A stretch of 15,783 nucleotides of DNA from a virus. The translations under genes were made by a program, and so were the position numbers. Positions 795 through 15,783 of this stretch are shown here, in pieces. The stretch's first letter is position 1. Each line of letters starts with the position of its first letter. The stretch lies in the IMG/VR virus record IMGVR_UViG_3300009666_000002; one strand, written 5' to 3'. The notes below the pieces were generated by a model. That model saw only the letters and a list, made by a program, of their open reading frames with translations. It was not told the DNA's origin and ran no database searches.

Positions 795-1226
795 TTACCT
801 CAAAGTGCCCTCTTTCATCTGGCTCTTGATCTGATCCATGTGCTCGATGATTTCTTGCGGTTTCATGGCCTTCACGGCCTCGCGGGTTAGGGGTTTCTTT
901 GTCTCGCCCGCCGGATTGCCACCGCCCCCTACAGGCTCTTTGGGTCCGATCTCTTTCAGCAGCTTCTCACCGTCGGCCTTCAGCTCCGCCTCGGTCGTCC
1001 CCTGGAGGCGTCCCGCCAGGGAAGGAGGGAGTTTCAGGTCGGTGGCGATCTTCGCTTTCAGAGAGTCCAGGTTCTTGGATTCGTGATCAGCCAGCTTCGC
1101 TTTGAGATCGGCATTTTCAGCCTTGATCTCGTCGTAATCGGCATACTTCGCCTTCTCTCTGGCTACCCGTTCCTGGATGAAGCGGTCCACATCTGCCTGA
1201 GTGAATTTCTTTTCATCATCGGTCAT
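795..1226 (-). CDS. Capsid assembly scaffolding protein (DUF4355-like)
   Basis: 143 aa, highly charged and coiled-coil. The N-terminus (FTQADVDRFIQERVAREKAKY) is typical of phage scaffold proteins. It lies immediately upstream of the capsid gene. GGAGAT sits 8 nt before the ATG. Confidence 0.75.
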   Translation of the reverse strand: MTDDEKKFTQADVDRFIQERVAREKAKYADYDEIKAENADLKAKLADHESKNLDSLKAKIATDLKLPPSLAGRLQGTTEAELKADGEKLLKEIGPKEPVGGGGNPAGETKKPLTREAVKAMKPQEIIEHMDQIKSQMKEGTLR

Positions 1227-1958: not shown

Positions 1959-3323
1959 TCAGAGGATGGGAGCCGAGCCCCCCTCCTCCTCTTCGATCCT
2001 CGCCACTTCGGCCTCCAGGTCCTCCTCGGATGCGTCGGGGTCCAGCCGGGCCAGGCTCCCTCTGGTTGAAGTCGCCCGCGCGCTACGTCTCGTTAGCTCC
2101 ACCTTTGCCGCTTCTACGGGGTCGACAGGAAGAGACGACCTCCACTCCAGGGAGACGTTGGTGAGGGCCTGAGATCCGCTCATCCGGGATGCAACCTCGA
2201 GCTCTGCAGTGGTCTTCAGGACCTCGACGAGCTTCGGCCTGATCCGGAGCCGGAGCCGGTTGACCTTCGCCAGCGTGGGGAGCATAAGGCGCTTGAGGGC
2301 GCTTCCCGACTCGGCCAGGCCGCTCTTAGTCTCACCGAAGGCAGCCGGGGACAGTTCGGCCATGACGTAGAGCTGAGAGAGAAGGGTCTCGATTTGGGTG
2401 AATGTGGCGCCCATCTGAGCATCCCACACCAGGATCTCGGGGTTCCGCTCGTCCTCGTTCAAGGCGATGTACTTCTCATCAGACGCCCACACGATCTCGC
2501 CCGTGATCGGATCTCGGACCCTGAGCCCCGACGGGCCACACATCCAGGGATCGGCGAAGGTGTCCAGGGTCCCCGAGACCTTGATCAGCCGCCGCTCGAT
2601 CTCCTCAACGATGTCGGAGACGTCTTTGAAGTCGTCCAGCCCGAAGACGCCGTCCCCTGCCTTCAGGTTGGAGAAGGGGAAGACCAGGAAGCCGGCCACC
2701 CCCGTCTCCTCCTCGGGCGTCAGGCTGGCGTATCTCGGGATGGTGGCCAGGTCGACGGGCTCTTTGATCTCTTTGCCGTCGGAAGTTAGCTCAAGGAGCC
2801 GGTGCTCTATCTTTCCGGGCTTGTGGATCTCCACCTTGACGTATCGGTCGTCGCCTTGTTTGACCTCCCAGGCCAGGGCATGAGCCGTGAAGGTTCCGGC
2901 GTCGTCGGGGTCCACTACCGGGAACCAGTGACGGGGATCTATCCGACTGATAACCCCACGCTTCCCATCCCATCGGGGTTTGAGGACCCCATCCCCGAAG
3001 GCGATCAGGTCGCTGAAGAGGTCGTAGACGAGGATCTCGAAGGCGTTATCGTCGGTGATCCGGTCCACCGTGGTCTGATCCACGGCCGTGATCTTCGGCG
3101 GGTTCCCCACAGCCAGGTCGCTGAAGAGGGTCATGATCCGCTTGAACCAGTTGACACGCATCTTGATGATCCGGGGGGCGTCGTCCTCGTTCAGTCCAGC
3201 GAAGACGAGATCGTGGTCTCCCTCCATTAGCAGCCGGTTCTTTGCATATCGAGCCAGCCGGTCTTTGTCTGGCGGCCACTTCTGGCCGGGCTTCAGAAAA
3301 TCTAACGTAGTGAATACGGTCAT
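1959..3323 (-). CDS. Portal protein
   Basis: 454 aa, immediately downstream of the large terminase with a 4-nt ATGA overlap. The N-terminus (KWPPDKDRLARYAKNRLLMEGDH) and acidic C-terminal tail are typical of SPP1-gp6-like portals. Size and position also fit. Confidence 0.8.
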   Translation of the reverse strand: MTVFTTLDFLKPGQKWPPDKDRLARYAKNRLLMEGDHDLVFAGLNEDDAPRIIKMRVNWFKRIMTLFSDLAVGNPPKITAVDQTTVDRITDDNAFEILVYDLFSDLIAFGDGVLKPRWDGKRGVISRIDPRHWFPVVDPDDAGTFTAHALAWEVKQGDDRYVKVEIHKPGKIEHRLLELTSDGKEIKEPVDLATIPRYASLTPEEETGVAGFLVFPFSNLKAGDGVFGLDDFKDVSDIVEEIERRLIKVSGTLDTFADPWMCGPSGLRVRDPITGEIVWASDEKYIALNEDERNPEILVWDAQMGATFTQIETLLSQLYVMAELSPAAFGETKSGLAESGSALKRLMLPTLAKVNRLRLRIRPKLVEVLKTTAELEVASRMSGSQALTNVSLEWRSSLPVDPVEAAKVELTRRSARATSTRGSLARLDPDASEEDLEAEVARIEEEEGGSAPIL

Positions 3324-4534
3324 CTTGAAGGCCTCCTAAAATCGGTAACACGGCGGCTCTTGCTGATCCTGTTAACCAGGTAGCGAAGGGTGTCGACGAG
3401 GTCGTCGTCTTCTTTGATGGGGGCGTCCTCTCCCCGCTCGGTGGCTTTGGGGTCCCATCGGTAGCCCTCCAGCTCCTCCTGGAGCATCTCGGTCGACGGG
3501 CCGACGAGGTAGAGCCATCCCTGGTCGAAGGCGTTGATCACCTTCTGGATCCCGTTGAGAACGTCGTTATCGGCCTGCTGGACGCCCTCGATTCCATCCC
3601 CCACAAACTGGAGCCGGTGAGCCTTCGCCGCCGGGTCGACGTCGATCGATGTCGGATACATCCCAGCCAGGAATTTCTTCAGGTCCTTCGAGACCTCAGC
3701 CGGGGACTTGTCGGCCTTCCGGTACTCTCCAGCGATGTACCACTTATCGGCGATCCGGAAGCCTTTCAGCATCGCCGTGGGGTGAGTGGCTCCAGGATCC
3801 ACAGCGACTCTCATCTCCTCAATCCGGCCGTCGGGGAGGCGGGGGATGCAGTGAATATCCCGGTTGAAGTTTCGGTAAACGGCGCCCTCAGCAGCCACCC
3901 ACAGGCCATCGATGTACCTCTGATAGAAGAGAGATCCTCGAGGCCCGAACTGGCGCTTCAGCTCGGCGACGTACAGGGGGTCCAGCCAGGGGTTATCCTC
4001 CAGCTCGAAATGCCAGGTCTTGAGATCCAGCTCGTCCTCCCGGTCGATCCATTTCTTCTTTAGATAATGAGCCGGCGGGCCCGGATTCGTCGTGAGGAAG
4101 AGCTGAGAGCCCGGCTCGGAGAGACGAGAGATCAGCATGTTGAAGAAGCTCTCAGGTGTTAGGCTCCCCTCATCGACCAGGGCACCGCCGAGGGTGAGGC
4201 CTGCGATCTTCGTGAAGGCGCTCTCGTCGTTGGCTCCCTCACAAAGGATATGCCGCCCGTATATGGTGGCGACCTTGAGGGACCGCCGGTACTCGAAGTT
4301 TTGAGGGCCTACCAGGGAGGCGATAGGCAGAAGGACGTTCCTCTCCAGGCTCGTGAGGGTCTTCCCGGTCATCAGCAGGTTGACCCCGGCCGGAGCCTCG
4401 AGGACGGCCCGGAGCCACCGGACGTTAGCCCCGACGGTCTTCGCCGATCTGACAGCGCCGTGGAGAATGTTCACCCTTGCATCGGAACCGAGGCAGAAGT
4501 CCCGCTGCTTTCCGGTGGGAACCTGGAAGCTCAA
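3320..4534 (-). CDS. terL: Terminase large subunit (PBSX/terminase_6-like)
   Basis: 404 aa. It has a Walker A-like GAVRSAKT, a Walker B-like ALVDEGS, and a C-terminal RNase-H-like nuclease region (VAVDPGATHPTA ... DDLVDTLRY). It overlaps the small-subunit gene by 4 nt. Confidence 0.88.
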   Translation of the reverse strand: MSFQVPTGKQRDFCLGSDARVNILHGAVRSAKTVGANVRWLRAVLEAPAGVNLLMTGKTLTSLERNVLLPIASLVGPQNFEYRRSLKVATIYGRHILCEGANDESAFTKIAGLTLGGALVDEGSLTPESFFNMLISRLSEPGSQLFLTTNPGPPAHYLKKKWIDREDELDLKTWHFELEDNPWLDPLYVAELKRQFGPRGSLFYQRYIDGLWVAAEGAVYRNFNRDIHCIPRLPDGRIEEMRVAVDPGATHPTAMLKGFRIADKWYIAGEYRKADKSPAEVSKDLKKFLAGMYPTSIDVDPAAKAHRLQFVGDGIEGVQQADNDVLNGIQKVINAFDQGWLYLVGPSTEMLQEELEGYRWDPKATERGEDAPIKEDDDLVDTLRYLVNRISKSRRVTDFRRPSR

Positions 4535-4994: not shown

Positions 4995-7583
4995 CTAATC
5001 CGGACAATTGAACCCCCTCGAATATCCCTGTTGCTCCAGCATCCCGATAGCCATCACTGCCTTATCCTTCGGCCACTCCTTCTGCACCTTCATCAACTGC
5101 TTGACCGTCGGGACTTGGCCTCCTCCGATGTCCAAGTAGGCGGGGATGCTCAAGCCGAAGATGGTATTCGCTTCGGTCTTTTCGGGGACCGCCGCCACGT
5201 TTGGCTTCGGGGGCCGTGGAGGTGAGCATACTGTCAATCTGTCGATACTGTCACTACAGTCACCGGTGTCACCACTGTCACCTAGTTTGGGCTCCTTTTT
5301 AGTAACATGATTCCCACAAGAAGATGATTTATCTTCTGATCTAGTGTTACGTTTATCCTCTCGATCCTCAGTGTTACGAGTGACAGTATGGACAGTATCG
5401 ACATTATCGACGGTATAGACAGTTCCGACATTAAGAACGACCTTAACCGTAGATTCCCCTCTGGGGTTCTGGATCTCACAATATTCGACGGTCCCATCCC
5501 CGGCCATGGTATCGAGGTATTCCTGAAGCTCTTTCGCCTTGATCTTCACATGCCTGGATATTTCCCGCTTGGTAGAGACGCCGCCATGCCTCTTCAAAAA
5601 CGCTATGATCCGGTCGATAATGTTCCGCTCCAGGTCCCGGCCAACCATGTCATAGACGGCCATGGCCATGGGCTGATAGTACTCGTCCACAAGCCGACAA
5701 GCCTCGATGACGTACTCGAGCCGGATAGGTCGTCTCCATGCCGGATCGAAGTCAGAAGATCCCAGCTCGAAGAGCATCGCCAGTTTAGCCACCAACGGAA
5801 CCAACCTGCTGTGAATCTGCATCTCGTTGGCGTCGTCTCTCCTCTCGATCTCCCTTGCCCGCTGCTTTTGCCACCGGGTCCAGTACTCTGCCGCCTCTTT
5901 ACTGAAATTAAGCTGTTGTCTCACCATCTCGGAGACGGTTTTTGACATGGCAGCCAATTGTCCCTTGACGACGAGCTCCAGCTCGGAGTTCATCGCCTCG
6001 CCTTCCTCCAGGGGAAGCCATCGCTCTTTGGGTCTCCTCGGGAAGTGATAGATGAACCTCGCCATGAAGCCGCTGAGGGTGTCGTTGATCTCGGTGTTAG
6101 CCGCTAACGAGGAGTCGGTCGTCGCCCACAGGACGTTGAGATAGGGGTCGTCCACGTTAAACTCGTTTTTACTCTTCGTCCGCCTGTTGGTCCTCAGCTT
6201 CCGGTGAATGGGTCGGCAATCGTACAACTGCATCAGCGAATCTTTGAAGCCCCTCATGTAGTCCCGTCTCATGGTCGACAAGATTCCGGCAGCCTCGTCT
6301 CTCACCCACGGGGCATGGGGGCATTCATCGAGGTGCTCGATGAAGGCTTCCGGCGAGAACTCTGTCGGGACTGCATTGATCGCCGTCCCCGGTCGGTGAT
6401 CGTTGAGAAGAGACTCGGTGATGTCGGCGACGGTGCTCTTGCGGCTGAGGCTCGATCTTCCGGCTATGAAGATGTAGAGGTTTGGATAGACCGGCCCCTG
6501 TCGCAGCTTGACCCATATTTTCTTATCGGCAATCACAGCCAGTTGATAGAGCCCCCCAGCGAGCCAGTAATCGGGGTAGGCGTCCGATACGTCTCGCCCG
6601 TATGCGATATAGCGGGTTAGATAGTGGTTCCCAGGCAGGTTAAGCTCGAATTTTGGGCCGTGATCCATCTTCCTGGAGGCTAGCTCCTCCTCGGTGATCG
6701 GCTTTGCCTCCTCGATCCCACCGGTGTTCCCCTTCGGCGCCGCTGCTGATTGGATCGCTCTTCTGATTGTGGTGTCTCTGTAGTCGTCGGCACCCCTCTC
6801 TCTCCATTTCTCCTGTGGGCTGGAGTCCATCAAAGATCTGATCTCGGACTCGGAGAACCCCTCTTCCCACAGCCTGGCGCAGAGGTGGAACTCGTGGTCC
6901 GATCGATCGCCGACACTCGCTGGAGAATAGTATCTATCCTTAAACTTCGGGTCGTCATCGCAGAGGGCTGCGAATCTCTCGGCCAGATCATCGCCCACTT
7001 TTCCCCCCTCGCCGTGGGTGGTGGGGGCCTCCTGGGAGGCGCTCCATATCCGGCGGTGTACTCGATCGAGTGCCTCGTCGAAGTCCTCTATATCAGAGGT
7101 TGCGCTGTCCAGCCTGTGGCCGGTAAAGGTGAGATACCGACCCCCGTCGTACATCTCGATATTACCCTTTTTGCGTCCCTCTCGCCGGAGCTTCCCATAT
7201 CCCAGGACTCGGAGCCCCTCACCGCTTGGAGAGATCTCAACGTAGCTTCCCAGCTCCTCGACGATCTCCAAGGCCCAGGGCTCGATCTTTGCCCCATTGA
7301 CGCAGTGGTCTAGGTCGACCCCGGCGAGAGCCTCCATAGCGTTGAGAGAGAGCCCTATACCGTCGAAGCCGCCCTTCTGATAGGCCTGGACTGCCTGGAC
7401 AAATGTCATCCATTCTGCGGGATCGTGGGCGTCGATCTTCTTCCCGTCTTCGTTAAATGGCGGTTTGGTCCATTTTCCATTGACGAGGGTATATTTCCAC
7501 AGAATCCAGCCTTCTACCGCCCTCAGTGCATCGGGTACATTTCGATGCCAGACGTCGAGGGCGATGGGTCGAGGGGCGTTCAT
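4995..7583 (-). CDS. Replication protein: archaeo-eukaryotic primase (prim-pol) N-terminal domain, PriCT-like domain, DUF3987/D5-like helicase-type NTPase, winged helix and a repetitive C-terminal linker
   Basis: 862 aa. AEP motifs are present: GVDLDHC (DxD), YVEISPSGEGLRV (SGxGxH-type motif with R in place of H) and IEMYDGGRYLTFTGH. There is a PriCT-like DRSDHEFHLCARLWEEGFSESEI. The DUF3987-like core has the P-loop-like IAGRSSLSRKST. A wHTH-like IIAFLKRHGGVSTKREISRHV follows. The tail contains TV-x and GD-x tripeptide repeats. Confidence 0.85.
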   Translation of the reverse strand: MNAPRPIALDVWHRNVPDALRAVEGWILWKYTLVNGKWTKPPFNEDGKKIDAHDPAEWMTFVQAVQAYQKGGFDGIGLSLNAMEALAGVDLDHCVNGAKIEPWALEIVEELGSYVEISPSGEGLRVLGYGKLRREGRKKGNIEMYDGGRYLTFTGHRLDSATSDIEDFDEALDRVHRRIWSASQEAPTTHGEGGKVGDDLAERFAALCDDDPKFKDRYYSPASVGDRSDHEFHLCARLWEEGFSESEIRSLMDSSPQEKWRERGADDYRDTTIRRAIQSAAAPKGNTGGIEEAKPITEEELASRKMDHGPKFELNLPGNHYLTRYIAYGRDVSDAYPDYWLAGGLYQLAVIADKKIWVKLRQGPVYPNLYIFIAGRSSLSRKSTVADITESLLNDHRPGTAINAVPTEFSPEAFIEHLDECPHAPWVRDEAAGILSTMRRDYMRGFKDSLMQLYDCRPIHRKLRTNRRTKSKNEFNVDDPYLNVLWATTDSSLAANTEINDTLSGFMARFIYHFPRRPKERWLPLEEGEAMNSELELVVKGQLAAMSKTVSEMVRQQLNFSKEAAEYWTRWQKQRAREIERRDDANEMQIHSRLVPLVAKLAMLFELGSSDFDPAWRRPIRLEYVIEACRLVDEYYQPMAMAVYDMVGRDLERNIIDRIIAFLKRHGGVSTKREISRHVKIKAKELQEYLDTMAGDGTVEYCEIQNPRGESTVKVVLNVGTVYTVDNVDTVHTVTRNTEDREDKRNTRSEDKSSSCGNHVTKKEPKLGDSGDTGDCSDSIDRLTVCSPPRPPKPNVAAVPEKTEANTIFGLSIPAYLDIGGGQVPTVKQLMKVQKEWPKDKAVMAIGMLEQQGYSRGFNCPD
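5227..5279. repeat. Array A: six units of about 9 bp ending in (C)TGTC (for example GATACTGTC), inverted relative to array B
   Basis: The sequence reads catactgtc aatctgtc gatactgtc actacagtc accggtgtc accactgtc. It lies inside the replication gene, where it encodes GD-x repeats. Confidence 0.8.
5382..5435. repeat. Array B: six tandem 9-bp units, consensus GACAGTATC, the reverse complement of the array A units
   Basis: The sequence reads gacagtatg gacagtatc gacattatc gacggtata gacagttcc gacattaag. A 102-bp AT-rich core (5280..5381) separates it from array A. That core contains AGTGTTACG twice, at 5343 and 5370. Confidence 0.8.
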
Positions 7584-7859: not shown

Positions 7860-8321
7860 CTATTCATCTACCGACTTCTTCTTTCGCGCAGCGGCTTTTG
7901 CCTCAGCCACCATTTTCTGACGCTCCTCATACTGACGTTTAGCCTCATCCTGCTGCCTCCTGGCCAGCTCAGCGTATGGGGCGAATTGTGTCACAAGATG
8001 TCGTTTTTCGTCTTCAGAGACTTTGCCTTCCAGGACAGCCATCAGCGAGATGACACAACTGTTAAAATTAGTCTGCGCAATCTCGGTCTGATTCAACAGC
8101 GAAGTGTATGTTCCTAGGATGCTATCATTCTGCTCCTGGAGATTTTTTATTCTAGCTCGATACTCGTCGATTCTGTCGCCGTATTCCAAGGTGTCCAACA
8201 TCAGCTCCCTCGCCGCCGTTGACATCGATACCTCATTTTTGTCGGCCATGCTCAGAACTCTAGCATACAACCAGTCCGGAACTCGGATCACGAGCTTTCG
8301 CTCCATCGTATCGGGAGACAT
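7860..8321 (-). CDS. Ribbon-helix-helix (CopG/Arc-like) DNA-binding protein with a coiled-coil C-terminal domain
   Basis: The N-terminus KLVIRVPDWLYARVLSMADKNEVSMSTAARELMLDTLE fits the RHH beta-strand/helix/helix pattern. It is paralogous to the adjacent 142-aa protein (MERKLVIRVP versus MEKRLNVRVP; SLMAVLEGK versus CIPVLEGK). Confidence 0.7.
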   Translation of the reverse strand: MSPDTMERKLVIRVPDWLYARVLSMADKNEVSMSTAARELMLDTLEYGDRIDEYRARIKNLQEQNDSILGTYTSLLNQTEIAQTNFNSCVISLMAVLEGKVSEDEKRHLVTQFAPYAELARRQQDEAKRQYEERQKMVAEAKAAARKKKSVDE

Positions 8322-8355: not shown

Positions 8356-8775
8356 TTATTCGTCCACGGTACCAGGCGTGTTTTTACTGGCTATTTCGGT
8401 TATGATCTTGATGCGATTGAGATATTTGACTAGCTCTCCGGCTTCCCAGCACTCTGGTTTTCCTTCCAACACGGGAATGCATGCATTCAAAATAGTGATG
8501 ATCATCCGATTGAATGTCGCGACTGTATCGTACATGGAGTCAAGCGACTTAAGAAGCGTCTTATTCGCCTCAAAAAGCCTTTCTTTATCCCCGAGGAGCT
8601 TCGTTATGTCTCTGTCGTACATCTCCTTCTCGGGCCCAAATTCTAGGTAGTCCTCCACGATTTCACGGACGATGGTTCCAACTGAGGTATTTTCCTTGAC
8701 TGCTATGTCTACGACTTGATCATAGATGTCCTTCGGAACGCGGACGTTCAGCCTTTTCTCCATCACCACTGGCAT
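8356..8775 (-). CDS. Ribbon-helix-helix DNA-binding protein, paralogue of 7860..8321
   Basis: RHH pattern RLNVRVPKDIYDQVVDIAVKENTSVGTIVREIVEDYLE. The ORF track begins at a TTG (8784). I prefer the ATG at 8775 because TATAAATA lies exactly 22 nt upstream of it. Confidence 0.7.
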   Translation of the reverse strand: MPVVMEKRLNVRVPKDIYDQVVDIAVKENTSVGTIVREIVEDYLEFGPEKEMYDRDITKLLGDKERLFEANKTLLKSLDSMYDTVATFNRMIITILNACIPVLEGKPECWEAGELVKYLNRIKIITEIASKNTPGTVDE

Positions 8776-8797
8776 GTGTCCCAATTGTGCCCCATTA

Positions 8798-9340: not shown

Positions 9341-9560
9341 TAGATTACTCAAACAAGAACGTGAAAGGCAATCGCTTGTTCTCCGATCAATTCACCAAGC
9401 ACGACGCTATCTCAGAAGCCGCTAAAATCGAGCGCTGAACGCAAACTGATTATTTTATATAATCTCTGTAATCATCATTATAACGCGTATATATTTAATA
9501 ATGTATTTAGAATACTAAAATTGATAGAATATAAATAGGCGAAAGCTATTTAATCGTTAC

Positions 9561-9587
9561 ATGTACCATGGTATATGTACGATGGTA
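9561..9587. repeat. Tandem 13-bp direct repeat ATGTAC(C/G)ATGGTA x2, containing the palindrome TACCATGGTA, at the edge of an AT-rich non-coding tract
   Basis: The sequence reads atgtaccatggta t atgtacgatggta. It lies in the 320-bp ORF-free region 9353..9671. Confidence 0.7.
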
Positions 9588-9671
9588 CCGTGGTGAGTAA
9601 AGCCTTCTCGAAAAGGATGAGGCCGCCTATGGGCGGGTGGGACGAAGTAAAGAAGGGTTCACCATGAGCAC

Positions 9672-10274
9672 TTATTTATTTTCGAAGATATAATCAATTG
9701 TTACAGCAAAACACGACTCTATCTTTTGATAGTGGATACTATCTCCACGATATTTTTGAGTTATTGTCCCTGCAATAAAGTCAGCTGCTTGGATGCACGG
9801 ATATTGCCTAGAATCAAGCGGCTCCAGTTTTAATGAGCACCTGTCCAATTTTTGTCCAAGGACGTCTTCATCTATCGTATACATGGACTTATCGGGGCAA
9901 ACGTTCACAGTTCCGTTTAGATTACAGTTTATAATTATTTCAAATAATAGTTTTTTAAACATGTGATCGTGTATGTGTTGTGCGCTATCGTTTATCGTCA
10001 AACTGGATTTACGTTTATGCAGTATTATATAGGCTAAATTGCTATCTGTTTTCGCGATGCATTCAAGAATACGCCTTTTGATCGCATCATTCGAGTTGTT
10101 AAATTTCAGTTCAGAAGTCTGTTTATATTTTTTAGATAATCTATTCATTCTAATACGTTTAATGCATTTATCAATCGCAGACGAGTCTTTTGTTATGATC
10201 GCAGCCAACACAAAAAAGTCGGATGCGTTTTGGCCGAATCCTAAATCACCAGACTCATCGATATAAACATCCAT
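9672..10274 (-). CDS. DUF3800-like protein (function unknown), low-GC cargo gene
   Basis: The N-terminal MDVYIDESGDLGF and C-terminal SRQYPCIQAADFIAGTI match my recollection of the DUF3800 signature (N-terminal DESG, C-terminal Q-x-AD). GC content is far below the core genes. GGGGG lies 6 nt upstream of the ATG. Confidence 0.6.
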   Translation of the reverse strand: MDVYIDESGDLGFGQNASDFFVLAAIITKDSSAIDKCIKRIRMNRLSKKYKQTSELKFNNSNDAIKRRILECIAKTDSNLAYIILHKRKSSLTINDSAQHIHDHMFKKLLFEIIINCNLNGTVNVCPDKSMYTIDEDVLGQKLDRCSLKLEPLDSRQYPCIQAADFIAGTITQKYRGDSIHYQKIESCFAVTIDYIFENK

Positions 10275-10336: not shown

Positions 10337-10732
10337 TTAGCGAAGCTCAAGCGCCTCTGCCTTCAGCTTTCGGGCTCTCGCCGTGGCTGCCTCTCGGGTC
10401 ATCTTTCGAGGAGAGCCGATGTACTTGTTAACGACCTTGTCCCCCGCCTTCCAAGATGCGAAAAAGTACTCATAGGTCTTCGGCCCCTTCGCGGTGATCT
10501 TCTCCACCTGGCCGAGGTATACCGTCAACGCCTCCAGCCGCGCCGCATCCCACAGAGCCTCAGCCTCGCCCCCCAGCCTGGCCGCCTCCGCCTCTCTCTC
10601 CCTCGCCGCCGGTTCCAGCCCCCTGATAGCCCGGAGCTTTGCCGCCTCGTCTCGCAGCTTCCGGGCCTCCTCTCTCAAGGCCTTGATCTCCTCCCCGCTT
10701 GTGGTTTCGTAAACGATCTTCTGCCTCGCCAT
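10337..10732 (-). CDS. Hypothetical coiled-coil protein with a C-terminal Y-x-Y-F-x-A-S-W-K-x-G-x-K-V-x-x-K-Y-I-G motif
   Basis: 131 aa. The N-terminal half is charged and Ala/Arg/Glu-rich. The C-terminal segment is KTYEYFFASWKAGDKVVNKYIGS. High GC. It is divergent from the plus-strand wHTH gene. TTTATATG lies 23 nt upstream of the ATG. Confidence 0.55.
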   Translation of the reverse strand: MARQKIVYETTSGEEIKALREEARKLRDEAAKLRAIRGLEPAAREREAEAARLGGEAEALWDAARLEALTVYLGQVEKITAKGPKTYEYFFASWKAGDKVVNKYIGSPRKMTREAATARARKLKAEALELR

Positions 10733-10884: not shown

Positions 10885-11436
10885 ATGAGGACATTAGAAG
10901 ACCAGCCCCTAGCGGATGCCAGAGGCCGATCCACGACCAAGGATAAAATGGCCCTTCTGGCGGATAAGCTTTTCGATGAGGACCCAAGAATTAAGCATCT
11001 TTTAACCGAGGTCCTCCAGCAGCAGGAGGATGAGATCCGTCGGCTCCAGTGCATCTCCCAGCAACGACAGAGGGAAATTCAGCGCCAGGAAGATGAGATC
11101 CACAAGCTCAGGGAGGAGCTGGACGCCTTCCGGGAAGAGGTCGCCCTCGAACGAGCATATGACCGCCAGAGGATCTCCAGGCTGGAGAATCCCATCGCTT
11201 CGCCCTCCCCACCACAAGAAGGGACTAAGACCGCCGCCAGGATCGAAGAGATGATCGGGATCCTGAAAAGACGACAGGGCCGGGCCGCCTTTTCGGAGCT
11301 GAAAGAGGATCTGAAGCTTACTGACTCCCAGTTTTCGAAGCTCATTAAAAAGCTCGATATGCGCCGGTTCGACGTGCAACGCCGCCCCCACAGCGGAAAG
11401 GAGAAAGTTCTGATCCTGAGGCAACAGATCGGATAG
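10885..11436 (+). CDS. Coiled-coil plus C-terminal winged-helix DNA-binding protein; the only plus-strand gene and a putative switch regulator
   Basis: 183 aa with AGGTGA 7 nt before the ATG. It has heptad-like Q/E/R-rich repeats, then ARIEEMIGILKRRQGRAAFSELKEDLKLTDSQFSKLIKKL (wHTH-like). The longer antisense ORF (11002..11610) looks like reverse-strand noise. Confidence 0.6.
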   Translation: MRTLEDQPLADARGRSTTKDKMALLADKLFDEDPRIKHLLTEVLQQQEDEIRRLQCISQQRQREIQRQEDEIHKLREELDAFREEVALERAYDRQRISRLENPIASPSPPQEGTKTAARIEEMIGILKRRQGRAAFSELKEDLKLTDSQFSKLIKKLDMRRFDVQRRPHSGKEKVLILRQQIG

Positions 11437-11737: not shown

Positions 11738-12448
11738 TCACCCAACATTTTGTATTATCTTTCCTACACCATTAATCAAATCGAGAACTTCTTCTTCGGT
11801 TGGATCACGAGCTTTTTTATGATCACACAAATTTCGTATATCAGCCAATTTTTGTATTTCCCTCCAAGTTGGAATGTCGTACACACTATGTGCTCTAAGT
11901 GGCTCGTTTAAATCTGCGATGGTTGGGTCTTTTTTAGAAATAGGAATACAACGATTGGCTGCTACTTGTTGGAGGTGGCTTTCAAGCACTACTGCAGCCA
12001 CGGTTCCAGCTGCTCTTAAATGCCCGTTTTTATGTAGATGCATAGCGGCATCAAGCTCCGAATTAAAAAGATCTGCTTGTAGAATATCTTTAATTTTAGC
12101 TAGCGTATCATCTAAAGTATCTGCTGAGGATGATAATATTTTTATTTGAACCAAAAAATTTATTGTAATATTTAGATTTGCGGAAGGCGTTATTTTAATA
12201 GTGGCTGGCTCCGGCAACCTTTCGCAGAGTCTTTCGATGGTATGGTATCGCCGTTCAAAATCCTCGGCGCGATGTGGAATTAGTTGTTTAATAACCAAAA
12301 ACGATCTTGTGTACCAACTCTCGTATTCGAACATGAAATTTAAATGGTCTTTCAAATCATCCTCACTTTTTAAATACTCCTGTAGTTTTATACCATCTGA
12401 TATTAGTTCATTCAAACCTTCTCTTATTTCTAGATAATTGTTTCTCAT
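11738..12448 (-). CDS. HEPN-domain protein candidate (C-terminal R-N-x3-H motif), low-GC cargo gene
   Basis: The C-terminal region ELDAAMHLHKNGHLRAAGTVAAVVLESHLQQV ... REIQKLADIRNLCDHKK fits the HEPN helix pattern and the Rx4-6H motif with N after R. The N-terminal ~130 aa are helical and of unknown family. The track ORF starts at a TTG (12466); the ATG at 12448 (MRNNYLEI) is more likely. Confidence 0.55.
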   Translation of the reverse strand: MRNNYLEIREGLNELISDGIKLQEYLKSEDDLKDHLNFMFEYESWYTRSFLVIKQLIPHRAEDFERRYHTIERLCERLPEPATIKITPSANLNITINFLVQIKILSSSADTLDDTLAKIKDILQADLFNSELDAAMHLHKNGHLRAAGTVAAVVLESHLQQVAANRCIPISKKDPTIADLNEPLRAHSVYDIPTWREIQKLADIRNLCDHKKARDPTEEEVLDLINGVGKIIQNVG

Positions 12449-12507
12449 AATAATTACGTTAATCAATCTAGAATGCTATAAGTTTTCCGGGTTCTAATGT
12501 AGTTTAT

Positions 12508-12951
12508 CTACTTCTCCAGCTCGCCGCTTTCCAGGCAGTCTTTGATGTACTGCTGGACGGTCCGGTTTTTGTATCCTACCTGCTGAGCTATTGCCTGTCG
12601 GTTCCGCTCTCCGCCTCTCCACAGCTCTTTGATCTTCTCTTGTGTCGCGGTGTCCTCGGATAGCCTCTGAATTGTGGGTTTAACCTCGGGTTTAACCTCG
12701 GGTTTAACGTCTTGTTTAACCGGTTTAACGTCCTGTTTAACTTCCGGTTTAACCCCCAGCCTGCTGTCAATCAGCTTTATAAGCTCTTTTTTATCTAATA
12801 CGATTAGGCCTGTACCTTCAGGGATTGCGACGTTAAAATATTGGTTTAACGCATCCCTCACGATATCGCTTTTGGACTTCTCGGAGCGTTTAACCTCTTC
12901 GTCGATCAAGGTCTCCAGCTCCGCCGAGATCTTGACCCCTAAGAATGGCAT
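12508..12951 (-). CDS. RHH (N-terminal), VKP-rich tandem repeat linker and C-terminal HTH DNA-binding protein
   Basis: The N-terminus is LGVKISAELETLIDEEVKRSEKSKSDIVRDALNQYF (RHH pattern). The central part is VKPEVKQDVKPVKQDVKPEVKPEVKP. The C-terminus is NRQAIAQQVGYKNRTVQQYIKDCL (HTH-like). Confidence 0.7.
   Translation of the reverse strand: MPFLGVKISAELETLIDEEVKRSEKSKSDIVRDALNQYFNVAIPEGTGLIVLDKKELIKLIDSRLGVKPEVKQDVKPVKQDVKPEVKPEVKPTIQRLSEDTATQEKIKELWRGGERNRQAIAQQVGYKNRTVQQYIKDCLESGELEK
12676..12756. repeat. Seven tandem units (six of 12 bp, one of 9 bp), each containing the heptad GTTTAAC; coding (VKPx repeats)
   Basis: The sequence reads gggtttaacctc gggtttaacctc gggtttaacgtc ttgtttaac cggtttaacgtc ctgtttaacttc cggtttaacccc. 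Three more GTTTAAC copies follow at 12844, 12887 and 12952. Confidence 0.9.
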
Positions 12952-13012
12952 GTTTAACTAATTGTTAAACGATCGGTTAAATATCTATGCCAGGTTAAAC
13001 GGATCGTTTAAT
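12952..13012. promoter_or_regulatory. Promoter/operator region of the RHH-HTH gene, with GTTTAAC/GTTAAAC heptads in inverted and direct orientation around a TATA-like ATATTTAA
   Basis: A GTTTAAC-taatt-GTTAAAC palindrome (12952..12970) abuts the ATG. Other copies are GTTAAAT (12976), GTTAAAC (12994) and GTTTAAT (13006). ATATTTAA (minus strand, 12977..12984) lies 25 nt upstream of the ATG. Confidence 0.6.
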
Positions 13013-13052
13013 GAAAGGTAAAACCACGGCCCGGGAAAACTCGGTTCCGCCT

Positions 13053-13274
13053 TTAAGGGCCATAGTCATGCAACCAAGCTTGATACCTGAGAAATTCCAG
13101 CTCTTTTCTGAGAAGCTCGGTTGTGGCTTCAAGCTCGTTAATCTTCTTTTTCAGGGCCACCCTTTCCTTCAACAGGACGGTGGTTCCCCGTTTCTCTCGG
13201 TCCTCTTTCAGCCGCTGGGAGACGATCCTCGTCATGTCGGCGCGTGAGAACTCGAGGACCTCGGTCAGTTCCAT
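13053..13274 (-). CDS. Small coiled-coil protein, hypothetical; last gene of the structural operon
   Basis: 73 aa. It overlaps the upstream gene by 10 nt and has a charged heptad-like sequence. T-tracts (GTTTTCC, GGTTTTACC) follow its stop. Confidence 0.5.
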   Translation of the reverse strand: MELTEVLEFSRADMTRIVSQRLKEDREKRGTTVLLKERVALKKKINELEATTELLRKELEFLRYQAWLHDYGP

Positions 13275-14074
13275 TTATCCCGCTCCTTTTCGTGGGGGCT
13301 CAAGGTCATTGTGTGACGGCACCCGACATGTTCCAGGCCGGCGGCTCGGGCCTCGGCGAGGGTCGGATATCCTGGGGTCTCTCCTGTTAACGAGAGGGTC
13401 CTCCCCTGCCAGGGAACGCACAAGGGGCAGGCCTTAGAATGCGTCGAGACCACCACCAAATCATAGCCATGCTCCAAGAGCCTGATCCGAGTCCCCTCTC
13501 TGAAGCTCTGCATGGAGGCGTTGTGGACGGCCATCTTCGAGTAGTTGGCCATATCCCAACGACGGCCCGCCTTGTCGATGAAGCCGGTAACACCTCTGGA
13601 GGCTAAGTTCTCTTTCATCCGTCTGGCCGCCGTATCGACGCTATCGATCCCCAGGACCACACTCTGAGTATACTCGAGCTGGAGAGCTCGAAATAGGTCG
13701 TCCACCTGTCGCCCTATGGTGAGATCGACCGCTCCTAGCCTGGAATAGGTCGCTTCGGCGAGAGCATGGACCGCCTCTTGGTGAAGGGTTCCGAAGCCCG
13801 CCGAGAGGTGGGTCGAGAAGGCCATCCCATCGGCATAGGCAACACCTTCGCGGTAGAGGTAGGGGATCGCGTCGTCGCACCACTCACGGCCACCGACGAG
13901 AAGCTTATTTCGAGCTGCCCTTATGTTCCGTTGAACGGCCCGGTAATAGGCAGGATCGCCACCTTTGAGGAGAACCCGGTTTATCTCCGCCTGGATCTTC
14001 CGGTCGCCGTTCTCATAGAGCTGGATGAGCCGGAAGGCCTGGTCTTCGGTGAGCGTGGCCGGGTTAACCGTCAC
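13265..14074 (-). CDS. Minor head protein, MuF/SPP1-gp7-like head morphogenesis family
   Basis: 269 aa. The C-terminal signature is THSKACPLCVPWQGRTLS...GLEHVGCRHTM (C-x-x-C ... W-x-G ... H-x-x-C-R-H/C), as in the phage Mu F/SPP1 gp7 family. It is translationally coupled to its neighbours. Confidence 0.75.
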   Translation of the reverse strand: MTVNPATLTEDQAFRLIQLYENGDRKIQAEINRVLLKGGDPAYYRAVQRNIRAARNKLLVGGREWCDDAIPYLYREGVAYADGMAFSTHLSAGFGTLHQEAVHALAEATYSRLGAVDLTIGRQVDDLFRALQLEYTQSVVLGIDSVDTAARRMKENLASRGVTGFIDKAGRRWDMANYSKMAVHNASMQSFREGTRIRLLEHGYDLVVVSTHSKACPLCVPWQGRTLSLTGETPGYPTLAEARAAGLEHVGCRHTMTLSPHEKERDKWN

Positions 14075-14691
14075 CCGCCTACACCCCCGAGAAGCAGGAC
14101 CCGATACAGCTCTTCCCCGTCCAGGCCGGCCTTCGGGGCGACTTTGACGACCTCGTAGATCGGGGAGTCCTCGCCGTTGATCACCAGCTTAATTTGGGCG
14201 CCAAACTCCAGGGGCTCAAGGCAGAAGAGCCGGCCCTCGGCCTGCATGATCTGCTGAGAGTATTCTTCATCGACCACCTTGAGGTACGTCGACCTTTTGG
14301 CCTCCCATCGGCATGGGAACTCGACCCACTCGCCGGGGAGCTCCTCTTCTGTGGTGGGGTCGGCCGCCACAACACGACAGTTTAGCTCCTCTTCCCCGAT
14401 GTCGGTCGTGATCTCGGTTACAGTGTCGAATTGTTTAGACGTCACCATCTCGGTGGTTCCCCAGGGAGGGCCGAAGCCTTCTAGGGTATCGCTTTGGGGC
14501 TCTCCGTCCAGGGTCCCAGTTATGGTTACGTTGAGGGCGATCGACCCCGAACTGATCTCATACTTGACCTTGAAGGGGTCGTCCATCGAAAAAGAAGGGG
14601 ATAGGGTGAGCGTTGCGAGGACTGGAGCCCAGCCGTAAATGACGGGGGAGTCCTCATATTTGGCGGTCTGGCTCAAGTAGCCGGCGATCAC
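14071..14691 (-). CDS. Virion protein; the C-terminal half resembles head-closure/head-tail joining proteins
   Basis: 206 aa, between the adaptor and the MuF-like gene with 4-nt overlaps on both sides. The C-terminal pattern (WVEFPCRWEAK...AEGRLFCLEPLEFGAQIKLVINGEDSPIYEVVKV) recalls the head-tail joining protein family. The N-terminal ~100 aa are beta-rich and of unknown family. Confidence 0.4.
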   Translation of the reverse strand: MIAGYLSQTAKYEDSPVIYGWAPVLATLTLSPSFSMDDPFKVKYEISSGSIALNVTITGTLDGEPQSDTLEGFGPPWGTTEMVTSKQFDTVTEITTDIGEEELNCRVVAADPTTEEELPGEWVEFPCRWEAKRSTYLKVVDEEYSQQIMQAEGRLFCLEPLEFGAQIKLVINGEDSPIYEVVKVAPKAGLDGEELYRVLLLGGVGG

Positions 14692-15185
14692 CGAGACCTA
14701 GCCCCCTTCGCCAGGTAGGGCTCCAGCAGCCTGTAAGCCGCCCAGGACCTCAGAGGAGTCCCCTTGATCCCTCCTCCCTGGAGAGATCCGTCGTACTCTT
14801 CCCACAGCTCGCCGAGTTTGAAGTTGGTTACACCTCCTTCCTGGAGCTTCCGCCTCTGATCGTTGGACGTGTCCAGCCTCGCCAGAGCCTCCTCGCAGAC
14901 TGCATCTTTGATAGCCTGGGGAATCACGGGGATATCATCGGCGTCTCGGTCGGCGACCACCCACCCCCGGCGCGTCTTGATCAGTCGCGGCCACTGGAGG
15001 GGCTGAGTTGTAATATCATATTCAAATTTTTTACCGATGAAAGGGAGACTATCCACAAGCCCAGAGACGTACACTAAAAGAGCGTCCTGCTCATCACCAG
15101 AGAGAGCATCCCAGGCCACGGCATCAGGACGATCGACCACGTAAGCATCCATCTCATCGGAGGTAACGTATTCGGATTCGGCCAT
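14688..15185 (-). CDS. Head-tail adaptor/connector (gp6-like, DnaT-like family)
   Basis: 165 aa. The pattern AWDALSGDEQDALLVYVSGLVDSLPFIGKK...QPLQWPR is characteristic of gp6-like head-tail connector proteins. It is in the position expected after the capsid and accessory genes. Confidence 0.7.
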   Translation of the reverse strand: MAESEYVTSDEMDAYVVDRPDAVAWDALSGDEQDALLVYVSGLVDSLPFIGKKFEYDITTQPLQWPRLIKTRRGWVVADRDADDIPVIPQAIKDAVCEEALARLDTSNDQRRKLQEGGVTNFKLGELWEEYDGSLQGGGIKGTPLRSWAAYRLLEPYLAKGARSR

Positions 15186-15623: not shown

Positions 15624-15783
15624 TCAGCTCGGAGCACAGGTCAGAACGCAGAGACATTCAGGATCGATGACCTTCGCGCCGTAGCAATGGAGGCCCCGGA
15701 GGGCGTCGGCGAAGAACTTGTCAGGCCTGTAAGCCTCGGTCTCGTTCACAGAATCGGCGAAGGTACACGCCCTCGATACTCCA
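15624..15783 (-). CDS. Major capsid protein, C-terminal end. 15624..15690 holds the unique last 21 codons plus the stop; 15691..15783 duplicates 1..93.
   Basis: The frame continues from base 1 across the junction: ...FADALRGL-HCYGAKVIDPECLCVLTCAPS-stop (TGA, complement of 15624..15626). 788 + 67 nt = 855 nt = 284 codons plus a stop. Confidence 0.85.
   Translation of the reverse strand, partial: GVSRACTFADSVNETEAYRPDKFFADALRGLHCYGAKVIDPECLCVLTCAPS
15691..15783. repeat. Right copy of the exact 93-bp terminal direct repeat
   Basis: Identical to 1..93. Confidence 0.95.

Follow-up and report, generated by a model that had tools for sequence, protein, structure and literature searches.

A heptad array shared by the promoter and linker-coding DNA of an RHH protein gene in a Methanothrix-type archaeal virus-like element

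The window, that is, the whole stretch of 15,783 nucleotides analyzed here, is a complete circular genome of 15.69 kb with a 93-bp terminal repeat. It is a Methanothrix-type head-tailed, archaeal virus-like element that encodes its own primase-helicase. Family searches recognized no integrase among the ORFs of the complete genome, nor any ParA-, ParM-, ParF- or TubZ-type NTPase; a partition NTPase is also absent from the neighbors of the RHH gene in relatives. In a megablast search, the window over its full length matched no deposited phage. The locus considered here consists of a gene for a 147-amino acid protein, its promoter region, and a conserved partner gene further downstream (Table 1). 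This partner, which encodes a predicted coiled-coil protein, is the usual immediate downstream neighbor of the RHH gene in homologous elements (tblastn synteny; called genes in L070 and L076–L079), whereas low-GC cargo genes intervene between the two in the window. A type II toxin-antitoxin system with an RHH antitoxin was considered and rejected, as no recognizable toxin gene lies immediately downstream: neither the downstream gene at 11738–12466 nor the conserved partner matched a toxin family.

Table 1. Features of the RHH gene, its promoter, and the conserved partner gene (window coordinates).
Feature	Position	Strand	Basis or remark
Promoter-operator region	12952..13024	.	Heptads at -7, -19, -31 (near-copy), -49, -61 (near-copy), and -73 (near-copy) from ATG
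TATA-like element ATAGATATTTAAC	12976..12988	-	Centered ~26-32 nt upstream of ATG
Gene for RHH + disordered linker + HTH-like protein, 147 aa	12508..12951	-	ORF, translation, 65 homologues
RHH domain, residues 6-38	12838..12936	-	Pfam RHH_1
Two isolated heptads in RHH-coding part	12844..12894	-	12888-12894, V20-K21-R22; 12844-12850, A34-L35-N36, another frame
A/T-rich low-GC3 segment, residues 49-64, between RHH domain and array	12760..12807	-	Composition
Intragenic array, seven GTTAAAC, 12-bp period with one 9-bp step	12676..12754	-	Encodes (V-K-P/Q-E/D) linker
C-terminal three-helix HTH-like domain, residues 101-142	12526..12651	-	AF2 pLDDT ~79
131-aa coiled-coil protein gene	10337..10732	-	No Pfam or PHROG match, family unassigned

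The N-terminal domain matches Pfam RHH_1 over residues 6–38 (28.1 bits against a cut-off of 20.5, E=1.9e-6), a match that is precomputed for most of the 65 homologues, and it has weak PDB matches to AvtR (4hv0) and pRN1 ORF56 (2k9i). The AF2 monomer has helices at residues 10–22, 27–39 (moderate confidence), and 54–64, disorder at 64–100 (linker pLDDT 35–38), and a three-helix bundle at 101–142; it calls no strand at residues 3–9, where the β-strand of an RHH domain would precede the two helices. The RHH half of the RHH-HTH label given in the initial annotation is upheld by the Pfam match, but the HTH half is no more than plausible. HTH_28, HTH_24, HTH_40, HTH_29, HTH_23, and GerE all match the same 30–36 C-terminal residues, each below its cut-off. 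The best Foldseek matches of the C-terminal domain, the DNA-binding domains of DeoR, Lrp, and NarL, are nonsignificant (E≥0.4), and the domain also weakly matches the CW_7 repeats of Cpl-7 lysozyme. It is exchangeable, with two alternative C-terminal types among the homologues, and N- and C-terminal domains are modularly shuffled. Searching proteins with these last 57 residues by themselves, for further N-terminal classes, returned only one fragment.

The heptad GTTTAAC occurs 13 times in the window, counting both strands, as compared with 0.87 expected (mean of 200 dinucleotide-preserving shuffles, with a maximum of 4 and 0 of 200 reaching 13). Twelve of the 13 copies fall inside 12678–13000, and since the window is the complete circular genome, only one lies elsewhere in the whole replicon. 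This confinement to the RHH locus is repeated in relatives L164, L165, and L076–L079. On the + strand, copies start at 12678, 12690, 12702, 12714, 12723, 12735, 12747, 12844, 12888, and 12952, and on the − strand at 12964 and 12994. The heptad is the palindrome GTT-W-AAC, in which “orientation” amounts to the central base alone. Within the gene a single orientation is imposed by the reading frame, as GTT TAA C would contain an in-frame stop and only GTT-AAA-C remains. The seven tandem copies, spaced 12, 12, 12, 9, 12, and 12 bp apart, read GTT AAA C.. on the coding (−) strand, where they specify the V-K-(P/Q) repeats in the 147-amino acid ORF. At the other end of the gene, GTTTAAC-TAATT-GTTAAAC (12952–12970) adjoins the ATG (12949–12951). 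Beyond it lie the full copy at 12994 and one-mismatch near-copies at 12976–12982, 13006–13012, and 13018–13024, the first of which overlaps the TATA-like ATATTTAAC. An array running from gene into promoter, with ten same-orientation copies, seven tandem VKP-encoding units, a palindrome abutting the start codon, and extra copies around the TATA-like element, had been claimed in the initial annotation, and these elements are all found. The count of ten needs one qualification: seven copies belong to the repeat array, while those at 12888 and 12844 lie instead in the RHH-coding part. The latter two are invariant in 21 distinct class-1 sequences (the class of homologues carrying GTTWAAC), but selection on their DNA is inseparable from general conservation because many neighboring codons are equally invariant.

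In the promoter, heptads are spaced 12 bp apart inside each of two triplets. The 3′ half of the TATA-like element is itself the near-heptad ATTTAAC, and ATATTTAAC is invariant in 19 of 19 distinct class-1 promoters. From its position and sequence, the element is probably an archaeal TATA box. The mRNA is probably leaderless, since the ATG adjoins the last promoter heptad. Across the 19 distinct class-1 promoters, the -7 and -19 heptads are fixed and spacer sequences differ. The central W switches between A and T with the site retained, as fits a site for a symmetric dimer.

The linker was compared across ~25 distinct homologues, including 24 distinct linkers and the 19 class-1 promoters; these homologues are related and the counts below are not independent, a weakness offset in part by the internal comparison of synonymous sites in heptads with those in spacers. 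Linkers in relatives contain 2 to 12 heptads. Background codon usage is GTT for 16% of Val and AAA for 44% of Lys, and V-K dipeptides elsewhere are GTTAAA in 0 of 12 cases; in the linkers, Val-Lys is almost always GTT/GTA-AAA, as against 7% expected from background. In the 24 linkers, V-K is encoded by GTTAAA ~174 times and by GTAAAA ~11 times. The GTAAAA variant occurs in promoters as well, the correspondence of GTAAAAC variants between promoter and linker within the class being partial. Third positions of Pro, Glu, Asp, and Gln codons in the linkers drift freely. The codon following V/I-K begins with C in 182 of 191 cases, whether the residue is P, Q, R, L, or H. Arginine at this position is encoded by CGN in 14 of 14 cases versus 3 of 30 elsewhere in the linker, and leucine by CTN in 11 of 11 versus 19 of 44 elsewhere. 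For class 1, promoter and coding sequence share more 7-mers than in any of 500 synonymous recodings or any of 500 permutations of codons within the gene. GC3 falls from 0.6–0.8 in the two domains to 0.15–0.31 in the linker for most members of both classes described here; the drop in the window's own linker is milder (0.43 versus 0.65 and 0.69). Heptads are thus conserved beyond what coding for VKP requires, with Val and Lys third positions near-invariant and spacer synonymous sites variable, and neither VKP repeats written in other codons nor heptad-free promoters were found among the homologues. Judged by these comparisons, the conserved entity in the linker is the DNA word rather than the amino acids.

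A second class of homologues combines an RHH domain unlike that of class 1 with the same C-terminal domain, and its genes are syntenic with those of class 1. Here the word is G[AC]TATAC, located at -53, -46, and -38 (inverted) in the promoter and at +234, +243, (+252), and +267 in the linker, where it is translated as (A/D)-I-Q, isoleucine being written with its rare codon ATA. The 12-kb L070 contains just these six occurrences. Recoding tests gave 0 of 500 for L045 and L051, and for L050 0 of 500 against background usage and 1 of 500 against permutation of its own codons. In the class 2 variants L061 and L064, only a one-mismatch form is shared and the recoding statistics are weak. Sites are 7–8 bp apart in the promoter versus 9 bp in the linker, and the correspondence of GAT- versus GCT-ATAC between the two is partial. 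Relatives whose linkers are nonrepetitive (classes 3 and 4, with other N-terminal domains) do without an array inside the gene and served as negative controls: class 4 (L073) has no word shared by promoter and linker, and class 3 (L010) has no significant sharing in the recoding test. The L010 linker DNA does contain a perfect 11-bp inverted repeat, with GAAGTAC common to the promoter (single sequence, p ~0.07–0.09). That a second RHH class carries another heptad in promoter and linker alike supports a pairing of word with RHH domain. The sequences show promoter and linker words covarying jointly with RHH class, a covariation that could partly reflect block inheritance of the physically linked promoter, RHH domain, and linker.

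Taken together, the synonymous-site, first-base, promoter, and second-class comparisons lead us to conclude that the linker array is a selected DNA site. The dual use of one element as protein repeat and DNA site, from promoter into gene, thereby passes the comparative test, and the pattern suggests that it is bound by the RHH domain. We favor, at somewhat better than even probability, a model in which the heptads are the sites of the protein's own RHH dimer, with repression at the promoter and an auxiliary operator array in the linker. The GTT-W-AAC palindrome would be the recognition site of the N-terminal RHH dimer. The six sites in the 101-bp intergenic region would bracket and overlap the putative TATA box and leaderless start, and their occupancy would block TBP, TFB, and RNA polymerase, repressing the gene and downstream co-transcribed genes. 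RHH repressors that bind short-repeat arrays at their own promoters are known among type Ib centromere-binding proteins (PMC5016525), and pRN1 ORF56 is a further RHH repressor acting on its own promoter (PMC4234260). The same predicted site is repeated seven times ~200–275 bp into the gene, in DNA encoding the disordered interdomain linker; selection would act on the DNA word, and the PEVK-like amino acid sequence would be largely a by-product. The intragenic cluster would most likely be an auxiliary operator array, a high-avidity platform loading many RHH dimers beside the promoter. It may act through loops or bridges made by the long linker together with the C-terminal domain, or through titration that grows with the copy number of the element, and it would sharpen autoregulation and define allele-specific, “immunity/incompatibility”-like classes. 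A repressor with sites solely at its own gene would need a further output, which could be genes co-transcribed downstream or else the C-terminal domain.

The closest precedent is the set of origin iterons within gene O of phage lambda (J02459: O CDS, 38686–39585; iterons 1–4, 39034–39118). O dimers on adjacent iterons build a higher-order complex (PMC3985674). As with the sites predicted here, the site array of an N-terminal DNA-binding domain lies mid-gene, between two domains. Lambda O differs in not being an RHH protein, in having four 18–19-bp iterons rather than 7-bp palindromes, in a promoter of its own that carries no copies, and in a role in origin firing in a bacterium. Here, unlike in lambda O, the repeat is the entire linker, and its sites are common to a putative autoregulatory promoter in an archaeal element. 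Among lambdoid phages, O specificity covaries with the iterons, and origin-in-initiator-gene layouts also occur in P22 gene 18, SPP1 gene 38, and N15 repA. The omega repressor of pSM19035 (inc18) is a small RHH dimer that binds 7-bp heptads in many-copy direct and inverted promoter arrays. The multi-copy heptads at the promoter are similar here, but omega heptads adjoin one another with a 7-bp period and lie between genes, and omega has no second domain and a delta ATPase partner; here the period is 12 bp, half of the sites fall in coding sequence, and no ATPase partner was found in the genome. Neither class has the omega-type 7-bp register throughout: class 1 uses 12 bp in promoter and linker alike, and class 2 uses 7–8 bp in the promoter and 9 bp in the linker. 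Work on the omega repressor is cited in PMC5016525.

ParR/parC (R1, pSK41) and ParG/parH (TP228) have arrays flanking or overlapping promoters, on which cooperative RHH dimers also repress (PMC5016525; see also PMC3130281). A conserved repeat array of predicted RHH sites at or near an operon promoter is likewise present here. These systems differ in requiring an adjacent ParM or ParF NTPase, of which there is none here, in having intergenic arrays, and in the C-terminal position of the type Ib RHH domain. An archaeal RHH autorepressor at a BRE/TATA promoter is exemplified by pRN1 ORF56, found with the ORF904 primase-helicase (PMC4234260). The protein studied here resembles ORF56, AvtR, SvtR, and F55, which are RHH autorepressors of archaeal mobile elements with short or absent leaders, the elements encoding prim-pol or SF3 helicase replicases. 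ORF56 differs in being a bare 56-amino acid RHH protein with a single promoter operator, and we know of no intragenic array or linker repeat in any of the four. In the iteron plasmids P1 (incC-repA-incA) and F (RepE iterons plus an inverted-repeat operator), a promoter cluster autorepresses and a second, nearby cluster controls or titrates. The arrangement of one cluster on the gene's promoter and a second close by is similar here, but these Rep proteins are winged-helix initiators and their second array lies outside coding sequence. A limited literature search found no regulators with binding sites in their own coding sequence.

Several other readings of the array were weighed. It may be a centromere-like or anchoring site, at which the arrays would form a segrosome-type complex and the C-terminal domain would couple it to a host structure or other DNA, autoregulation being secondary. 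Such a site would suit the ~15–17 RHH-type sites within ~350 bp at one locus per replicon, the variable heptad number, allelic classes that would act as incompatibility groups, and the presence of the module in virus-like and plasmid-like elements alike, the present genome having no recognized integrase. RHH centromere-binding proteins also double as repressors on promoter repeat arrays (PMC5016525). Nevertheless, with no partition NTPase encoded in the complete genome, an RHH domain that is N-terminal rather than C-terminal as in type Ib proteins with their ATPase-activating N-terminal tail (PMC5016525), and a conserved 131-amino acid neighbor that matches no known family, we consider this explanation unlikely. 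Still less probable, in our estimation, is an iteron-type origin or copy-number locus akin to that of lambda O or to P1 incC-repA-incA, where RHH dimers on the array would either start strand opening or handcuff replicon copies, the C-terminal domain bringing in the primase-helicase. The element does have its own primase-helicase, its site array lies in interdomain-linker-coding DNA as in lambda O, the domains are shuffled, and in class 1 an A/T-rich stretch (30-bp windows of 73–80% A+T over ~40 bp; GC3 0.19–0.44 versus 0.56–0.65 in the RHH part) lies just upstream of the array. However, no counterpart of this stretch flanks the class 2 array, and the RHH gene is far from the primase gene in plasmid-like relatives. 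The genome also holds two competing candidates: repeats within the primase-helicase gene at 5227–5433, where six ACTGTC-type 9-bp repeats are opposed to six inverted GACAGT repeats in an arrangement that is more origin-like and is kept in one relative, and a noncoding, palindrome-bearing stretch of ~80% A+T at 9440–9580.

The intragenic repeats could instead have no present function as DNA, with operators being intergenic only and the coding repeats being either a flexible PEVK-like spacer made by slippage or the relic of a promoter duplication. Tandem 9–12-bp coding repeats readily expand and contract, and their copy number varies here; three GTTWAAC at 12-bp spacing occur in 84 viral-contig stretches, many of them on contigs labeled as giant-virus MAGs and not from this family; and the family includes members with nonrepetitive linkers. 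Slippage and concerted evolution fail, though, to explain why spacer synonymous sites diverge and those of the heptad stay constant, or why C is held at the first base after V-K across five amino acids, with Arg and Leu switching codon families there. Class 2, moreover, independently carries its own promoter word in the linker, rare ATA codon included, and we regard an absence of DNA function as very improbable. The faintest prospect is that the heptads are TATA-like promoter elements and that the array within the gene is a cluster of internal or antisense promoters. Each word is rich in A/T and resembles a TATA box (TTTAAA; CTATA), and the putative TATA element itself overlaps a near-heptad, but 7-bp palindromes at a fixed 12-bp spacing with a free central flip are the signature of a dimeric factor. 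The C-terminal domain in the window lacks an internal Met that could serve as the start of a separate product, and the antisense ORF at 12674–12961 (+) is a by-product of the repeat.

Building on the autoregulatory model, a broader and more tentative proposal, which we put at well under even odds, is that of a self-referential maintenance module of archaeal mobile elements, in which the interdomain linker of a DNA-binding protein is written by, and evolves as, an array of binding sites for that protein. Promoter, RHH domain, and linker would form one specificity cassette with at least two alleles (GTTWAAC and GMTATAC) that sets incompatibility or immunity and secures segregation or copy control without an NTPase. 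The genome appears to use this trick twice, the second time in the iteron-like arrays within the primase-helicase linker. If true, this second use would hint that compact archaeal replicons hide cis-acting arrays in disorder-coding DNA.

The locus would be a clear-cut example from nature of dual coding with the DNA function dominant, such that any of Pro, Gln, Arg, Leu, and His is accepted after Val-Lys if its codon begins with C. A “low-complexity linker” can, it appears, be the shadow of a cis-acting array. Synonymous recoding of such a linker would then destroy, and its annotation as mere disorder would miss, a control element. The principle of sites inside one's own gene, known from lambda O, would be extended to RHH proteins and to archaea. 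To our knowledge, the regulatory and maintenance biology of methanogen mobile elements is almost uncharted, and GTTWAAC and GMTATAC provide candidate orthogonal protein-site specificities in such elements that are directly testable. They may also furnish parts for Methanothrix or Methanosarcina genetics, as repressor-operator pairs or as stability and incompatibility determinants.

The window holds 13 exact copies of the heptad GTTTAAC where 0.87 would be expected, a count attained by 0 of 200 shuffles, and 12 of the 13 are located within 12678–13000. Seven coding copies, which read GTTAAAC on the coding (minus) strand, are spaced 12, 12, 12, 9, 12, and 12 bp apart and encode the V-K-(P/Q)-(E/D) repeats in the linker of a 147-amino acid protein (12508–12951). 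Two more heptads fall in the part coding for its ribbon-helix-helix (RHH) domain, at V20-K21-R22 and, in a different frame, at A34-L35-N36. The 101-bp intergenic region upstream of the gene reads, on the coding strand, ATTAAAC gatcc GTTTAAC ctggc ATAGAT-ATTTAAC cgatc GTTTAAC aatta GTTAAAC ATG, with another near-copy, GTTTTAC, 12 bp upstream of ATTAAAC; these sites are at –7, –19, and –31, and then at –49, –61, and –73. The single orientation of the heptads described in the initial annotation follows from the reading frame: GTT-TAA-C contains a stop codon, so an in-frame heptad must be GTT-AAA-C, and the word itself (GTT-W-AAC) is a 7-bp palindrome. Heptads are confined to one locus per replicon in the window and likewise in six homologous contigs (L164, L165, and L076–L079).

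We compared 65 homologous proteins and about 70 loci. Homologues having GTTWAAC (class 1) provided 19 distinct promoters and the linkers of 24 distinct genes. The far-upstream sequences of these promoters are unrelated, and a common layout is conserved from about –75 on: CATA-g-ATATTTAAC, five variable spacer nucleotides, GTTTAAC, AAT followed by two variable nucleotides, GTTAAAC, and the ATG. ATATTTAAC probably serves as an archaeal TATA box, and the transcript is likely to be leaderless. The upstream heptads are fixed in position, with the central base flipping or the word decaying to GTAAAAC, and the ATG-proximal site is GTTTAAC rather than GTTAAAC in five loci. Such flips are what a symmetric dimer blind to the central base would be predicted to tolerate.

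A comparison had been proposed to see whether the heptads are conserved at the DNA level beyond the needs of VKP coding, and in the linkers they are: synonymous positions of Val and Lys are nearly fixed while the spacers vary. V-K is encoded by GTTAAA about 174 times and by GTAAAA about 11 times in the 24 linkers, and by nothing else; in the rest of the window genome, GTT accounts for 16% of Val and AAA for 44% of Lys codons, and GTTAAA encodes 0 of 12 other V-K dipeptides. Third positions vary within the repeats for Pro (CCA 86, CCG 19, CCC 17, CCT 10), Glu (81/35), Asp (28/30), and Gln (25/14). Across 205 repeat units, the seven heptad positions carry 1.7–2.0 bits each and the spacer positions 0.08–1.1 bits. 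V/I-K is followed by one of five chemically unrelated residues (P, Q, R, L, or H), but 182 of the 191 codons at this position begin with C. For Arg, the codon here is always CGN (14/14), as against AGR elsewhere in the linker (27/30), and for Leu it is always CTN (11/11, versus 19/44 elsewhere). Sharing of 7-mers between class-1 promoters and coding sequences exceeded that in all 500 synonymous recodings and all 500 within-gene codon permutations. Concerted evolution of repeat units cannot account for the invariance of the heptad, because spacers differ within a single array. The suggested dual use as protein repeat and DNA site is likewise supported: the heptads are real, locus-confined, positionally conserved in the promoter, and conserved as DNA over protein in the linker.

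A second, independent word has the same promoter-plus-linker distribution. Class-2 homologues occupy the syntenic position and are followed by the same 131-amino acid coiled-coil neighbor; their C-terminal domain is nearly identical to that of class 1, but the RHH domain differs (MESLRQYNVRLPEEL...). Their promoter has no GTTWAAC and instead reads GATATAC-GCTATAC-c-GTATAGC-tTATAGCg-CTAGAGATAGCTATAGAGC-taat-ATG. The linker consists of (A/D)-I-Q repeats encoded as GCT/GAT-ATA-CAA/G, that is, G[AC]TATAC at 9-bp spacing, and the 12-mer CTAGAGATAGCT is common to the promoter and the linker start. The linker Ile codon is ATA (21% background use), the rest of the gene favoring ATC, and a Q-to-H change leaves the word whole (GAT ATA CAT). 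The 12-kb contig L070 contains G[AC]TATAC solely as three promoter and three linker copies. In recoding tests of class-2 loci, the count was 0/500 under either null for L045 and L051; for L050 it was 0/500 with recoding by background usage and 1/500 when the gene's own codons were permuted. Results were weak for L061 and L064, where the linker carries the promoter word only with one mismatch. In most class-1 and class-2 members, GC3 drops from 0.6–0.8 in the flanking domains to 0.15–0.31 in the linker; the drop is milder in the window (0.43, versus 0.65 and 0.69).

Class-2 linkers of L046, L066, and the protein P0043 end in two class-1 heptads (GTT AAA CCT GAT GTT AAA ACC, encoding VKPDVKT), and N- and C-terminal domains are found in several combinations among homologues. 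On this evidence, domain shuffling appears to use the repeat arrays as recombination junctions. Copy number varies in class 2 also, with one additional 30-nt unit (DIQAIQTTAK) in P0043. Promoter/coding sequence sharing was not significant in relatives with nonrepetitive linkers (class 3, L010; class 4, L073), indicating that the statistic is not inflated by default in this gene family. L010, which has a third N-terminal class, carries a perfect 11-bp inverted repeat, GACCGAAGTAC-N12-GTACTTCGGTC, in linker-coding DNA (3066–3099), and GAAGTACC lies between the TATA-like element and the ATG of its promoter (about 2840–2859). It could represent a third case of the sharing, albeit from a single sequence and without significance. 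L078 and L079, plasmid-like elements that encode a Prim-Pol replicase and a toxin of the ParE type, carry two identical RHH gene copies (9772–10272 and 15434–15934 in L078), each with its heptads, 5.66 kb apart within a 2.2-kb direct duplication.

The window protein matches Pfam RHH_1 above threshold (residues 6–38). An AF2 model from a 23-sequence alignment has the two RHH helices and a third helix (54–64), a disordered segment (64–100, pLDDT 35–38), which is literally (PEVK)n in sequence, and a three-helix bundle (101–142, pLDDT about 79). The bundle matches several HTH families, all below cut-offs, and its best structural matches, nonsignificant, are the DNA-binding domains of DeoR, Lrp, and NarL. 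The C-terminal domain (12526–12651) also matches the three CW_7 cell-wall-binding repeats of Cpl-7 lysozyme (PDB 5i8l; summed E about 1e-6, about 10 bits per repeat), which may reflect just a common small three-helix fold.

By its 93-bp terminal direct repeat (1–93 and 15691–15783), the window represents a complete 15,690-bp genome, circular or terminally redundant, with nearly all genes on the minus strand. No integrase or tail genes were recognized in it, and it may represent either an archaeal head-tailed virus of very small size or a satellite-like element that forms capsids. Homologues of the RHH gene come from anaerobic-digester metagenomes, on contigs that include ones binned as Methanothrix and Methanoregulaceae, and one is from the genome of Candidatus Methanocrinis natronophilus strain Mx; these sources make an archaeon of the Methanotrichaceae the most probable host. 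The RHH gene and its 131-amino acid partner are adjacent in most relatives; in the window, low-GC (36–40%) cargo genes separate it from this usual downstream partner (10337–10732). The two RHH/Arc-like genes upstream of the primase-helicase gene recall the pRN1 orf56-orf904 operon, and neither is among the best 45 listed scores for promoter/coding sequence word sharing in a screen of ORFs.

Genes and repeats of the window
Feature	Position	Strand	Remark
Scaffold	795–1226		
SPP1-type portal	1959–3323		
Large terminase	3320–4534		
DUF3987 primase-helicase	4995–7583	minus	862 aa
Inverted GACAGT-type 9-bp repeats	5227–5282		six; about 98 nt from ACTGTC-type set
24-bp direct repeat containing CGTAACACT	5328–5378		flanked by ACTGTC/GACAGT arrays
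ACTGTC-type 9-bp repeats	5373–5433		six; inside primase-helicase gene
Small RHH/Arc-like proteins (two)	7860–8321 and 8356–8784	minus	just upstream of primase-helicase gene
A+T-rich noncoding stretch	within 9440–9600		about 120 bp, about 80% A+T
Near-perfect palindrome TACATGTACCATGGTATATGTA	9558–9579		adjoins A+T-rich stretch
Cargo: DUF3800 protein	9672–10274	minus	
Cargo: winged-helix protein	10885–11436	plus	
Cargo: 242-aa protein	11738–12466	minus	without known family
Minor capsid protein 2	13265–14074		
Head-tail adaptor	14688–15185		

The palindromic sites and the known behavior of RHH autorepressors (PMC5016525; PMC4234260) point to the RHH dimer as the probable reader of the heptad, as does the finding that the same C-terminal domain goes with both words and both C-terminal types go with GTTWAAC. 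Promoter, RHH domain, and linker adjoin one another and would be expected to be inherited together anyway, which by itself is no proof of recognition. We somewhat favor RHH autorepression at the promoter with an intragenic auxiliary array. RHH dimers would occupy –7 and –19 (between TATA box and start), –31 (over the TATA box), and –49 to –73 (upstream), shutting off the promoter. The intragenic array, 200–275 bp downstream, would serve as an auxiliary cluster of these sites. It would increase occupancy locally, with the long linker and C-terminal domain mediating looping or bridging, or else through titration in proportion to copy number; together with the promoter, it would confer allele-specific control.

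A centromere-like or anchoring complex would fit the size of the array and the absence of an integrase, but we consider it unlikely, as no partition NTPase was found in the complete genome. A lambda O-like origin or handcuffing locus is more doubtful still. Its architecture fits, since lambda has four iterons (39034–39118) inside the O coding sequence (38686–39585), but the window genome has more origin-like repeats in the primase-helicase gene (5227–5433) and, elsewhere, a noncoding stretch of about 80% A+T with a palindrome (9440–9580). The ACTGTC/GACAGT repeats lie in DNA coding for a low-complexity replicase segment (residues about 716–790), are conserved at the DNA level in the L165 homologue (84% protein identity), and resemble an iteron-type origin embedded in the gene of the replicase itself; the A+T-rich stretch is a candidate promoter or unwinding region. 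That the intragenic repeats are a pure by-product, having no DNA function, is hard to square with the codon evidence and seems very improbable.

There are precedents for sites inside the gene of their own binding protein, most famously lambda O, and also for RHH proteins (omega, ParR, ParG, and ORF56) that recognize heptad or repeat arrays in the promoters of their own genes. The literature searched gave no account of the present promoter/linker arrangement. What is new is the combination of both principles in an archaeal element, a linker made wholly of the sites, a single array common to promoter and coding sequence, and two orthogonal site alleles.
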